From: a virus
Length of the DNA: 64,000 bases
Virus record (IMG/VR): IMGVR_UViG_3300044632_001278
Direction: 5' to 3' (one strand)
The notes below the pieces were generated by a model that worked only from the letters and a program-made list of their open reading frames with translations, was not told the origin of the DNA and made no database searches. Both the position numbers and the translations under genes were made by a program. Of this stretch, positions 35,788 to 39,017 are shown in pieces (positions within the stretch are counted from its first letter, which is position 1; the number at the start of each line of letters is the position of its first letter).

Positions 35788-35822
35788 AAGCCGGTGGAGT
35801 TTTTATACCCCACCGGCTTTCT
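35788..35822 (+). terminator. Terminator-like hairpin after the SSB gene
   Basis: AAGCCGGTGG / CCACCGGCTT 10-bp stem with a short T tract. Confidence 0.6.
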
Positions 35823-35835
35823 AGTTATATACGTT

Positions 35836-36981
35836 ATGGCAAAGAAAAGTGTTACAAAAGATACATCGGGTCAACGTGACGAATTAATCGAAATGTTGGC
35901 GAATGAGCTTAACAAAGCAAATAAAGATGGTGGTAAAATTGCACATTTCCTAGATGAACAAGATAATCCTTCAGAAATTACTGATTGGATTAGTACTGGC
36001 TCTTCTATTTTGGATCTTGCAATTAGTAATCGTCCACACGGCGGTCTACCAGTTGGTAAGATGGTTGAATTCAACGGACTTGAAGGTACTGGTAAGAGTC
36101 TATTGTCGGCACACGTTGTCGCAGATACACAGAAGAAGGGTGGAGTCGCTGTAGTAATTGATACTGAAAACGCAGCTGCGCCTGAGTTCTGGAAGAGTCT
36201 TGGTGTAGATTTGTCTAAGCTACTATATGTTCAATGTGAAACCGTTGAAGATATTTTTGCTCAGATGGAGAAGATGATCGCGATTGTTCGTAAGAGCAAC
36301 AAAGATCGTATTCTTACAATCATTGTAGATTCTGTAGCAGCAGCATCTACTAAAGTTGAATTGGAAAGTGATCACGGTAAGGATGGATTTGCAACGGGTA
36401 AATCTATTATTATCAGTAAGGCAATGCGTAAGATTACTACTATGATTGGTAAACAGAAAGTATTGACTGTATTTACTAATCAACTACGTCAGAATTTAAA
36501 TGCTATGGCATTTGGTGATAAGTACGTAGTAAGTGGTGGTAAGGCTTTAGCATATCATTGTAGTGTACGTGTTCGTTTGAATAATGCCGGTAAACTCAAG
36601 AAGGGTGAAGAAGTCATCGGAAACGAGTGTAAGGCAGTTGTTATCAAGAATCGTATGGGACCACCTCAACGTCAGGCCAATTTTGATATCTATTTTGATA
36701 GTGGAATTGCTGACTATGGCAGTTGGATTAAAGTTCTAAAAGAACAAAATCTAATTAAACAGGGTGGTGCTTATTATACTTATAAAAAGAACGATGGAAA
36801 CGAATGGAAGTTCCAATCCAAAGACTTTGTAAGTGTAATGCAGAGTGACAAACAATTGGGTGAAGAAATTTACCTGAAGATTTGTGACGCTGTAATTATG
36901 AAATACAAAGATCCCAATAGTCAAATTATTGAGGATGCTGTTGTGGATACACACGAAGAAACTGCAGGCAACGAAGAATAA
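35836..36981 (+). CDS. recA: RecA/UvsX recombinase
   Basis: ISTGSSILDLAI, Walker A GLEGTGKS, IIVDSVAA, FTNQLR, GGKALAY and KNRMGPP. The ATG at 35836 is preferred as start. Confidence 0.92.
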   Translation: MAKKSVTKDTSGQRDELIEMLANELNKANKDGGKIAHFLDEQDNPSEITDWISTGSSILDLAISNRPHGGLPVGKMVEFNGLEGTGKSLLSAHVVADTQKKGGVAVVIDTENAAAPEFWKSLGVDLSKLLYVQCETVEDIFAQMEKMIAIVRKSNKDRILTIIVDSVAAASTKVELESDHGKDGFATGKSIIISKAMRKITTMIGKQKVLTVFTNQLRQNLNAMAFGDKYVVSGGKALAYHCSVRVRLNNAGKLKKGEEVIGNECKAVVIKNRMGPPQRQANFDIYFDSGIADYGSWIKVLKEQNLIKQGGAYYTYKKNDGNEWKFQSKDFVSVMQSDKQLGEEIYLKICDAVIMKYKDPNSQIIEDAVVDTHEETAGNEE

Positions 36982-36995
36982 TACGTTGATAGGAT

Positions 36996-37047
36996 GTTTT
37001 TCCGCATTGCCTACTATTTATTAGTATGGATAACAATGCGGAAAAAC
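36996..37047 (+). promoter_or_regulatory. 14-bp perfect hairpin enclosing the TATTTAT element and the endonuclease start codon
   Basis: GTTTTTCCGCATTG (36996-37009) / CAATGCGGAAAAAC (37034-37047). Confidence 0.75.
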
Positions 37048-37958
37048 TCTTTTTTGAAGACCGATCTGAACGATTATATCAAATCTTTATAAAAGATGAA
37101 TCAATATGTGGATTTACTTCTTTATTTAAACTGAATAAAATTGGTAGCAAAACTGGGGAAAAAATAAAAAAATATTTATATAATAAATATGGTGAAACTT
37201 ATTTGAAAAAAATAAGTGCTGTTAGAACGTCTAAAGCTGCTCATCAAAAAAGAAACAAAGATAGTTATTTTATTTCTTCAGAAAGAAGACAAAAAATGTC
37301 TGTCGGTATTAAAAAATATTATAAAAATAATCAGTCCGCTAAATCTAGATGTAGGGATTTAATGATTAAACATTGTTTACCAAAGTGCCAAACAATGGAG
37401 AGTAAAATAAAACGAGTAAAGAGTAGAGACTGGTATAAACCCAGTGAAGACACTAAACAAAAAATGTCTCAATCTCAACTTGGAAAGCCATTAACAGAAG
37501 AACATAAGTTAAAATTAAGAAAACCAAAGAAAACCAAACGATCTAATTTTAGACATACTACTGAAACAAAACACAAATTATCGTTAATTACTAAAAATCA
37601 GTGGAAAAGTGGAATTCACAAACCAATTTTTAAATCTAAAGGACAGCAGGAAGTAATTAGATTGTTAAAAGAACAAGGATATTCAATTCAAGATGAATAT
37701 GTTGTTGGGGGGAAGCCATACGATGTGTTTGTAAAAGAAAAAAATTTATTAATAGAATTTAATGGTACTTATTGGCACAGAGATCCTAGATTTTTTACAT
37801 CGTCCGATGAAGTTATTAAAATATGGGAAAAAGATAAAAATAAAATGTTGATTGCTGAATCGAATGGGTATATAATAAAAGTTATATGGCAACACGATTG
37901 GGAACAATGTAAAGACAAAAATATATACATTAAAAAACTATTAAATGAGCAACTTTGA
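37026..37958 (+). mobile_element. Free-standing homing endonuclease-like gene (NUMOD3 repeats plus Vsr/DUF559-like nuclease)
   Basis: SEDTKQKMSQSQLGKPLTEEHKLKL and HTTETKHKLS NUMOD3-like repeats. C-terminal YDVFV...LIEFNGTYWH...D..K...GY..KVIWQHDW. Confidence 0.75.
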
Positions 37959-38073
37959 CAACAAAGAAATGAAGAAGTTATTTTCTTTATTTCAAAATAT
38001 AGAAAGCGATTCCGTCACCGGAGGACTTAAAAAATCACTTAATAGTGATGTCCTTTTGGTTGACGGATTGTAG
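37945..38073 (+). CDS. N-terminal 42-aa fragment of the 5'-3' exonuclease/RNase H (not in the ORF track)
   Basis: ATG at 37945 reads MSNFDNKEMKKLFSLFQNIESDSVTGGLKKSLNSDVLLVDGL-TAG. VLLVDG is FEN motif I. Confidence 0.7.
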   Translation: MSNFDNKEMKKLFSLFQNIESDSVTGGLKKSLNSDVLLVDGL

Positions 38074-39017
38074 TGAATACTTACATTCGTAGTTTTATGG
38101 CCATTCCTTCACTCAATGAAGATGGGTTACACACTGGGGGTATTGCTGGTTTCTTGAAGAGCATTGGATATGCAATTAAATTACTTTCTCCTACCCGAGT
38201 TATTATTGTATTTGATGGTAAAGGTGGTAGTCAGAAACGCAGAAAGATATATCCAGGTTACAAAAACGGCAGAAAGACTGATATTCGTCTCAACCGTAAT
38301 TACGAAGAATTATCTTCATCACAGATTGAATCTGTTAACTTCAAAAAAGAATTGATTCGTACTGTAAATTATTTGGACACGTTGCCTGTAACAGTTATGG
38401 CAATTGATCAAATAGAAGCGGACGACACAATTGCTTATTTAGCTAAAGAAACTTTTAAGGACAGTAATGTAACAATTATGTCTACTGATAAAGATTTTCT
38501 TCAACTAGCAAGTGACAAGATTAAAATCTGGAGTCCTGTAAAAAAGAAAATTTTTGGTTGTAAAGAAATAGTGGATGAATATGGAATTACTTGCAATAAC
38601 TTTGTTTTATACAGAGTTATGGAAGGTGACGTTAGCGACAACATACCTGGACTAGATGGTGTGGGTTTAAAACGTGTAGTAAAAGCATTTCCATTTTTAT
38701 CAGACGGTCAACAATATGGATTACAAGAAATTTATAATTACTCTGAAAACAACAGAGGTAAATATAAAATATACGATACTGTATTGGATAATAAGTTGTT
38801 ACTAGAAAGAAATCACTCTCTGATGCAATTGAGTGATACGCAGGTTCAGTCATTTACACAATTACGTATAGAAGAAATAATAAAGACTCCTATTCGTAAA
38901 ATAGATAAAATGACTTTTACGAAGTTGATTACAGAAGACAAAATGTGGAATAATATCCCAAATTATCACATTTGGTTGAATGAGTGTTTTGGCAAACTAA
39001 ACAGTTTCATCGAATAA
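38073..39017 (+). CDS. 5'-3' flap exonuclease / T4 RNase H-like, C-terminal part
   Basis: VFDGKG, YKNGR, EADDTIA, STDKDFLQL and GDVSDNIPGLDGVG motifs. Motif I is missing here and lies in the upstream fragment. Confidence 0.85.
   Translation: MNTYIRSFMAIPSLNEDGLHTGGIAGFLKSIGYAIKLLSPTRVIIVFDGKGGSQKRRKIYPGYKNGRKTDIRLNRNYEELSSSQIESVNFKKELIRTVNYLDTLPVTVMAIDQIEADDTIAYLAKETFKDSNVTIMSTDKDFLQLASDKIKIWSPVKKKIFGCKEIVDEYGITCNNFVLYRVMEGDVSDNIPGLDGVGLKRVVKAFPFLSDGQQYGLQEIYNYSENNRGKYKIYDTVLDNKLLLERNHSLMQLSDTQVQSFTQLRIEEIIKTPIRKIDKMTFTKLITEDKMWNNIPNYHIWLNECFGKLNSFIE

Follow-up and report, generated by a model that had tools for sequence, protein, structure and literature searches.

How a virus can retain a nuclease gene that is interrupted by a stop codon within its catalytic motif is the question raised by a lake phage, IMG/VR record IMGVR_UViG_3300044632_001278, of which a stretch of 64,000 nucleotides (nt), hereafter the window, was analyzed. 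On its + strand, the 355-codon gene of a flap endonuclease (FEN)/5'-3' exonuclease is broken at 38068–38078 (TTG TAG TG AAT) into open reading frames (ORFs) of 42 and 314 amino acids (aa), and positions 38059–38090 read GTT GAC GGA TTG TAG TG AAT ACT TAC ATT CGT. The best explanation, which we hold with moderate confidence from the comparison of related sequences, is that the five bases TAGTG close a homing cassette, that this stop-led gap would protect its carriers, and that it would be bypassed by a +5 ribosomal hop.

The interrupted gene and its cassette

The break lies two residues past the aspartate that aligns with Asp18 of Taq polymerase. Intact 355-aa relatives, which are 99–100% identical over the 314 aa, read LLVDGLNTYIRSF without a gap, and this stretch aligns gaplessly to VLLVDGHHLAYRTF of Taq polymerase, with its D matching Asp18. 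Because the spacing from DG to R is gapless relative to Taq, an exact join of the two pieces would be expected from the fold. The metal-binding acidic residues, which in Taq are Asp18, Glu117, Asp119, Asp120, Asp142, and Asp144, are complete in this alignment, with VDG in the 42-aa part (hereafter the N-part) and EADD, DKD, and GDxSDN in the remainder (the C-part). The family considered was FEN/5'-3' exonuclease, represented by Pfam PF02739 and PF01367. The 314-aa ORF matched 5_3_exonuc_N (PF02739) with 95.6 bits (cut-off, 34.3) over profile positions 10–164; since the match begins at position 10, the first nine profile positions are in the 42-aa ORF. Accordingly, the sequence, the ORF list, Pfam, and the gapless Taq alignment agree with a first-pass annotation of this DNA, which had described a FEN gene split at its catalytic DG by TAGTG into ORFs of 42 and 314 aa. 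The overlap that it had noted between the upstream endonuclease ORF and the 42-aa ORF was also found and amounts to 14 nt.

Whether the five bases are real was determined by comparison. The main comparison set consisted of the 80 closest IMG/VR loci, and further contigs were taken from JGI, ENA, and Logan. An identical TAGTG junction was present in 24 of the 80 loci and in further contigs from the other three sources. As dozens of assemblies, made independently from different samples by different pipelines, have the same junction, the assembly error that the first-pass annotation had named as a risk is excluded, and the first alternative explanation, a sequencing or assembly artifact, is refuted by the comparative data and retains practically no probability.

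The same comparison corrected the view that five bases had been inserted alone into a resident gene. TAGTG forms the terminus of a cassette of 1.1 kb, by which codons 1–42 are replaced as well (Table 1). In two relatives with an intact FEN and no endonuclease (L003 and L004), blastn identity with the window is 98–99% up to 36981 and again from 38076, the first of these positions being the last base of the uvsX stop codon and the second the start of the AAT codon after TAGTG. The FEN codons 1–42 of the cassette share 60–64% protein identity with the resident version, and the rest of FEN is 100% identical. The same cassette was found in at least five backgrounds. In the first 80 loci, the TAGTG alleles all share the same 45 nt adjoining the junction, and their whole N-parts are 90–100% identical to that of the window; the C-part backgrounds of these alleles are 100, 90, 89, 80, or 78% identical FEN, and the sequence just 3' of the junction tracks each local background. 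A more distant TAGTG allele (L096, C-part 73%) differs in the 45 nt. The constancy of the sequence adjoining the junction across diverged C-parts indicates that the cassette spread horizontally in recent time. Such a pattern is what marks a homing element with a conversion tract reaching as far as the insert. One further allele with an intact FEN (L015:2870–2995) has an N-part whose first half is cassette-like and whose second half is resident-like; it contains no insert, and the hairpin located there in other alleles is destroyed (−6.6 kcal/mol). The gap was apparently lost in this allele by recombination.

The 310-aa ORF of the cassette matches two families of homing/HNH endonucleases, PHROG 559 (E 2e-16) and PHROG 3339 (4e-11), and its C-terminus matches Pfam MTES_1575 (Vsr-like restriction endonuclease) with 31.7 bits, which is under the cut-off of 38.2. 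Among the 80 loci, a full-length endonuclease (83–100% identity) accompanies 11 of 24 TAGTG alleles, none of the 52 intact alleles, and none of the four six-base alleles. More distant homologues also adjoin stop-led inserts, at 60% identity with CTG-TAGTG (L096), 92% in L136, and 37% with CTA-TAGAAAA (L116). The endonuclease has been lost in ten TAGTG alleles, in which a spacer of 95–135 nt remains, and two others retain only a remnant. Since the endonuclease occurs only with the insert and the insert also occurs without the endonuclease, the endonuclease needs the insert and not vice versa. This one-way dependence fits the insert as a resistance determinant, and the insert presumably protects its carriers against the endonuclease; the idea of a mobile self-immunity element likewise fits the limits of the cassette at the uvsX stop and the end of TAGTG. 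The first-pass annotation had expected endonuclease and insert to go together: the endonuclease was indeed found only with the insert, but the insert persists without it. Its overall reading was therefore borne out as regards the reality of the bases, the link with the endonuclease, and the selection described below, and not as regards a lone insertion or a dependence of the insert on the endonuclease.

Table 1. Features of the interrupted FEN locus in the window
Feature	Position	Strand	Basis or value	Remarks
uvsX/RecA-like recombinase gene	35794..36981	+	Pfam RecA, 182 bits	Stop codon is the left limit of homology with empty-site relatives
Mobile cassette, 1,094 nt	36982..38075	+		Hairpin, endonuclease gene, foreign FEN codons 1–42, and TAGTG gap; replaces 128 nt of empty-site relatives
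Hairpin enclosing the endonuclease ATG (37026)	36991..37051	+	−27.3 kcal/mol, z −7.9, 0 of 200 shuffles as stable	
Free-standing homing-endonuclease-like gene, 310 aa	37026..37958	+	PHROG, sub-cut-off Pfam	Vsr-like C-terminal nuclease domain
FEN N-part, 42 codons and TAG stop	37945..38073	+	ORF list	Ends in ...SDVLLVDGL; holds the first catalytic Asp
Hairpin in the coding region	38006..38071	+	−29 kcal/mol, z −5.45	3' arm ends at the take-off codon
TTG Leu codon	38068..38070	+		Last sense codon ahead of the gap; proposed take-off codon
5-nt gap TAGTG	38071..38075	+		TAG stop; GTG (38073–38075) is the proposed landing codon or re-start codon
314-aa ORF	38073..39017	+	ORF list	GTG start overlaps TAG by one base
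FEN C-part, 313 codons (NTYIR...) and stop	38076..39017	+		All other catalytic motifs; resident sequence, 98–99% identical to empty-site relatives

Stop-first inserts in related phages

Inserts at the same site in relatives were found by pattern scans in which the content of the insert was left open and by look-ups of short gene calls, and only genuine FEN contexts were retained. Approximately 14 types of 5–8 nt were obtained, all at exactly the same FEN site. Written as Leu codon and gap, they are TTG-TAGTG and CTG-TAGTG (5 nt); TTG-TAGTTA, TTG-TAGTTG, CTC-TAACTT, CTT-TAGCTG, CTG-TGACTC, CTT-TAGCTA, and CTT-TGAGTA (6 nt); CTC-TAACGTC, CTC-TAGCGTC, CTC-TGACAAC, and CTA-TAGAAAA (7 nt); and CTC-TAGTAATC (8 nt). 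In every type, the gap opens with a stop codon immediately 3' of the VDGL Leu codon, and TAG, TAA, and TGA all occur. No insert made only of sense codons was found at this site in a real FEN context, the non-stop pattern matches lying in unrelated contexts as judged by their flanks. One stop-led match (L155) was discarded as a chance match, with frames of only 12–13 codons on each side.

The types share further regularities. In six of the seven in-frame (6-nt) types, a Leu codon of the same box stands on both sides of the stop (TT/TT or CT/CT), with differences confined to the third base; the exception is CTT-TGA-GTA. The base after the stop is C in six stop-led types. The TAGTG of the window resembles the TTG TAG TTG of one relative (L267) minus one T. 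A tree of the N-part, which is poorly resolved, needs at least two to three gains or losses of the insert; thus, the site was probably hit more than once, and a single origin of all inserts was not supported. Taken at about an even chance, the FEN genes of a large group of uncultured freshwater T4-like phages would hold a natural and evolving family of programmed Leu stop-hops of 5–8 nt. These would have arisen on two or more occasions at one codon of the catalytic motif, where they would protect against a homing endonuclease of the Vsr type, with TAGTG as a frame-changing +5 derivative of a perfect UUG UAG UUG hop.

These alleles could also be broken genes. In that case the cassette would have made FEN inactive or dispensable in its carriers, with the 5'-nuclease of the host Pol I as a substitute. 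The viability of T4 rnh mutants would agree with this, and since the TAGTG cassette spread recently, decay might not show yet in those backgrounds. However, an N-part ORF of 37–46 aa is kept in every insert type, and the C-part ORF has its full 313–315 aa wherever it lies wholly on the contig, across deep divergence; two types (L143 and L160) are cut by the contig end. The ratio of nonsynonymous to synonymous substitution rates (dN/dS) between lineages sharing an insert type is 0.03–0.11 for the C-part where dS could be computed, dS being often saturated in these comparisons. For the N-part it is mostly 0.1–0.5, with higher values between near-identical cassettes and in the 7-nt pairs that are furthest apart. 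The N-part of the window gave 0.06–0.16 against the diverged insert alleles L019 and L096, and, against L071, whose cassette shows hardly any divergence (dS 0.04), a value near 1. Alleles without an endonuclease also keep both ORFs. The inserts themselves are stable: TAGTTA is unchanged among three lineages with an N-part dS of 0.29–0.75, and TAGTG is unchanged between the window and L096 at a dS of 1.2. Intact, constrained ORFs and unchanged inserts across such divergence indicate long-lived functional alleles rather than pseudogenes. Accordingly, both ORFs are under purifying selection, the pseudogene that the first-pass annotation had considered is not what was found, and an inactive FEN is regarded as improbable.

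Candidate routes across the gap

Under the preferred explanation, the endonuclease would, in a mixed infection, cut intact FEN alleles at or near the codons for VDGL/NTYIR, and repair would copy the endonuclease gene, the diverged FEN codons 1–42, and the stop-led 5-nt gap into the cut genome. The gap would part the two halves of the target, and carriers would be protected, including those that later lose the endonuclease. During translation, the ribosome would pause at UUG, holding peptidyl-tRNA-Leu there while UAG occupied the A site. This tRNA would release, the mRNA would slide by 5 nt, the tRNA would re-pair with GUG at two of three positions, and decoding would resume at AAU, so that FEN would be made as a single normal chain of 355 aa. 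The cleavage site, the immunity, and the hop are what we infer from the comparative record. The hop is preferred to other routes because it alone fits all gap lengths and yields the exact wild-type protein.

A two-chain enzyme is the main competitor and would share the logic of cassette and immunity. Here, translation would stop at UAG, the same ribosome would re-start at the overlapping GUG, and the 42-aa peptide, which comprises strand beta-1 and the first catalytic Asp, would assemble with the 314-aa chain. The one-base overlap of stop and start in TAGTG suits this route, and the allele that is most frequent and has spread most widely possesses a canonical start codon. A start codon is likewise supplied by TTG-TAG-TTG (L267), and since the deletion of a T from TAGTTG makes the UAGUG overlap, two-chain assembly is a serious rival for the TAGTG allele. 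In addition, split phage enzymes linked to endonucleases are known (T4 gp39/gp60 and Aeh1 NrdA). However, a canonical in-frame start is found only in TAGTG (GTG) and TAGTTG (TTG), and weakly as CTG; TAG-TTA, TAA-CTT, TGA-CTC, TAG-CTA, TGA-GTA, and the 8-nt TAGTAATC offer none, yet their ORFs are intact and constrained where readable. As many insert types have no start codon, hopping is favored over two-chain assembly. Moreover, the pieces abut at L/N and, in contrast to the MobA and MobE splits, have gained no tail at either terminus, no clear Shine-Dalgarno motif is present, and the landing codon retains positions 1–2 of the Leu box, which a re-start would not need. The two-chain enzyme is considered possible, though less likely than the hop.

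Other kinds of recoding would leave one or two extra residues at the junction, by readthrough in the in-frame types and by +1 or +2 shifts at the stop in the others; the window would then encode, for example, VDGL-V-NTYIR. The prfB shift site, CUU UGA C, has a similar succession of Leu codon and stop, and a C after the stop, as in six of the insert types, is a weak termination context in E. coli, which would favor the hop as well. However, several mechanisms would be required for one insert family. Readthrough would lengthen a loop that has a gapless DG-to-R spacing relative to Taq, and it is unable to rescue the 5-, 7-, and 8-nt types. Re-pairing after a +2 shift (UUG to GUA) would be poor, and an insert of sense codons was not seen at the site. 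Recoding of this kind is thus unlikely, though somewhat less so than an inactive FEN.

Reading of the stop by a suppressor tRNA was also considered. None was present among the 18 tRNAs read by ARAGORN in the tRNA cluster of a near-identical 134-kb contig, in which Rfam gave 22 matches, and the insert types between them employ TAG, TAA, and TGA; this candidate was rejected. On the same contig, ARAGORN reported a tRNA with a four-base anticodon (ctct) at L283:12194–12269 (− strand), within a cluster of approximately 20 tRNA genes, which may reflect a wrongly read loop or a genuine tRNA with an expanded anticodon.

Several points weigh against the ribosomal hop. The landing GUG of the window matches the take-off UUG at only two of three positions, and UAGUG is a textbook stop-start overlap. 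GUG is nevertheless the best landing match available, because a 5-nt gap starting with TAG forces the landing codon to begin with G. Landing codons are poorly matched in the 7-nt TGACAAC and TAGAAAA types and in the in-frame TGAGTA, and the short hops known from E. coli work with low efficiency. In the laboratory, T4 can do without rnh, which implies that a weak or lost FEN function could be tolerated for a while. Neither a Shine-Dalgarno-like motif within the gap nor a take-off stem-loop 3' of the junction (z 0.03) was found. The hairpin that precedes the junction, whose 3' arm ends at the take-off codon, was rejected as an insert-specific stimulator of bypassing, being present in intact alleles of deeper clades.

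Compensatory changes of paired bases support this upstream hairpin across 46 intact and interrupted alleles (matching positions in L186–L233). The third base of a Gly codon in the hairpin pairs as G-C in 17, A-T in 13, and T-A in 11 of the 46 alleles, in codon-anchored tallies that are biased in favor of the fold of each individual sequence. A MAFFT alignment of the region yielded no consensus with RNAalifold, the 5' arms being misaligned. Since intact alleles of deeper clades have the hairpin in the same register, it is ancestral. In the intact alleles of the window's own clade, the hairpin lies 12–15 nt further upstream. A preprint (bioRxiv 10.1101/2024.12.09.627546) proposes that mRNA pairing behind the ribosome aids forward slippage in gene 60, and by analogy the hairpin may help forward slippage here.

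Known systems and further features of the locus

To our knowledge, programmed bypassing in bacteria and phages has essentially one well-studied natural example, T4 gene 60. The mobA/gene 60 arrangement (Manning & Atkins, bioRxiv 10.1101/2022.08.31.505936; review PMC5009743) is the closest known system, of which the FEN locus, with the proposed hop, would be a miniature. In both cases, the endonuclease moves together with a divergent substitute for the neighboring coding segment and with a non-coding gap placed in a motif of high conservation, the take-off codon is immediately followed by a stop, and the gap is retained once the endonuclease is lost. In the mobA/gene 60 case, the bypass occurs in every phage with the endonuclease and in several that lost it (bioRxiv 10.1101/2022.08.31.505936), and Vsr-type endonucleases fill the role of MobA in some versions. 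The differences are that the gap measures 5–8 nt here and 50 nt in gene 60, that the take-off stem-loop and the in-gap Shine-Dalgarno-like motif of gene 60 have no counterpart found at FEN, that the endonuclease gene precedes the entire target gene rather than splitting it, that the target is FEN and not a topoisomerase, and that the take-off tRNA is Leu, not Gly, with a landing match of two of three positions.

Engineered stop-hops were reportedly described in 1987, and the CTT TAG CTA, TTG TAG TTG, and CTC TAA CTT of the relatives share their exact layout. Unlike these FEN genes, the stop-hops known so far are engineered and inefficient, and the window allele differs from them as a +5 version that also changes the reading frame. 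Of natural stop-hops, a 2016 review stated that "no occurences are known" (PMC5009743), and our literature search found no report of natural short stop-hops or of the FEN case. If the proposed hop is correct, this locus would provide natural examples of an event so far known only from engineered genes.

The mitochondrial byps of Magnusiomyces are 27–55 nt long. As with the FEN gaps, they interrupt coding genes as numerous short non-coding stretches whose take-off and landing codons match (PMC5009743), but they are mitochondrial and have no tie to an endonuclease cassette. Aeh1 nrdA/MobE and T4 gp39/gp60 resemble the FEN case in that a homing-endonuclease element disrupts a conserved region of an essential-type enzyme, and those enzymes still function. 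There, however, the endonuclease gene lies between the pieces and tails are needed for assembly, whereas the FEN pieces abut without tails and most sister inserts have no start codon.

One codon position with approximately 14 natural gap variants, comprising lengths of 5, 6, 7, and 8 nt, three stop codons, and several take-off/landing pairs, is a ready-made mutational series on ribosome skipping, for which the intact and empty-site alleles are built-in controls. The locus also illustrates the co-evolution of a selfish nuclease and a target that encodes an unchangeable active site.

The interruption is hidden in the databases. Interrupted alleles are annotated by gene callers as a "5'-3' exonuclease" or "DNA polymerase-1" of 306, 307, or 314 aa, accompanied by an orphan 42-aa ORF, and recoding of this type is invisible to metagenome annotation. 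The proteins of 306 and 307 aa were considered as a separate insert class and rejected: the four that were looked up (P0028, P0064, and TAGTTA alleles) are calls from the next ATG of TAGTG or TAGTTA alleles.

The genomic neighborhood is T4-like and contains gp32, UvsX/RecA, the endonuclease, FEN, a DnaB-type helicase, and NrdA. A blastn search against cultured phages gave no match, and no isolate with the TAGTG allele was found. The best protein relatives, at most 44% identical, belong to an uncultured phage, followed by Microcystis and Flavobacterium phages.

The hairpin that encloses the endonuclease start codon is presumably regulatory. It recalls the silencing of homing-endonuclease genes on read-through transcripts in T4. 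Alleles without the endonuclease have a similar hairpin with a different stem in the same place. In two otherwise similar alleles without the endonuclease (L059 and L034), the loop of the hairpin in the uvsX–FEN spacer is inverted, one being the reverse complement of the other. Finally, in some relatives (L120:479–3262, and also L088, L116, and L121), uvsX/RecA itself is fractured into a Hint/intein-like piece, a 345-aa ORF with a DUF559 (Vsr-like) nuclease, and the rest of RecA, which matches the arrangement of split intein and endonuclease described by Dassa et al. 2009 (PMC2677866).

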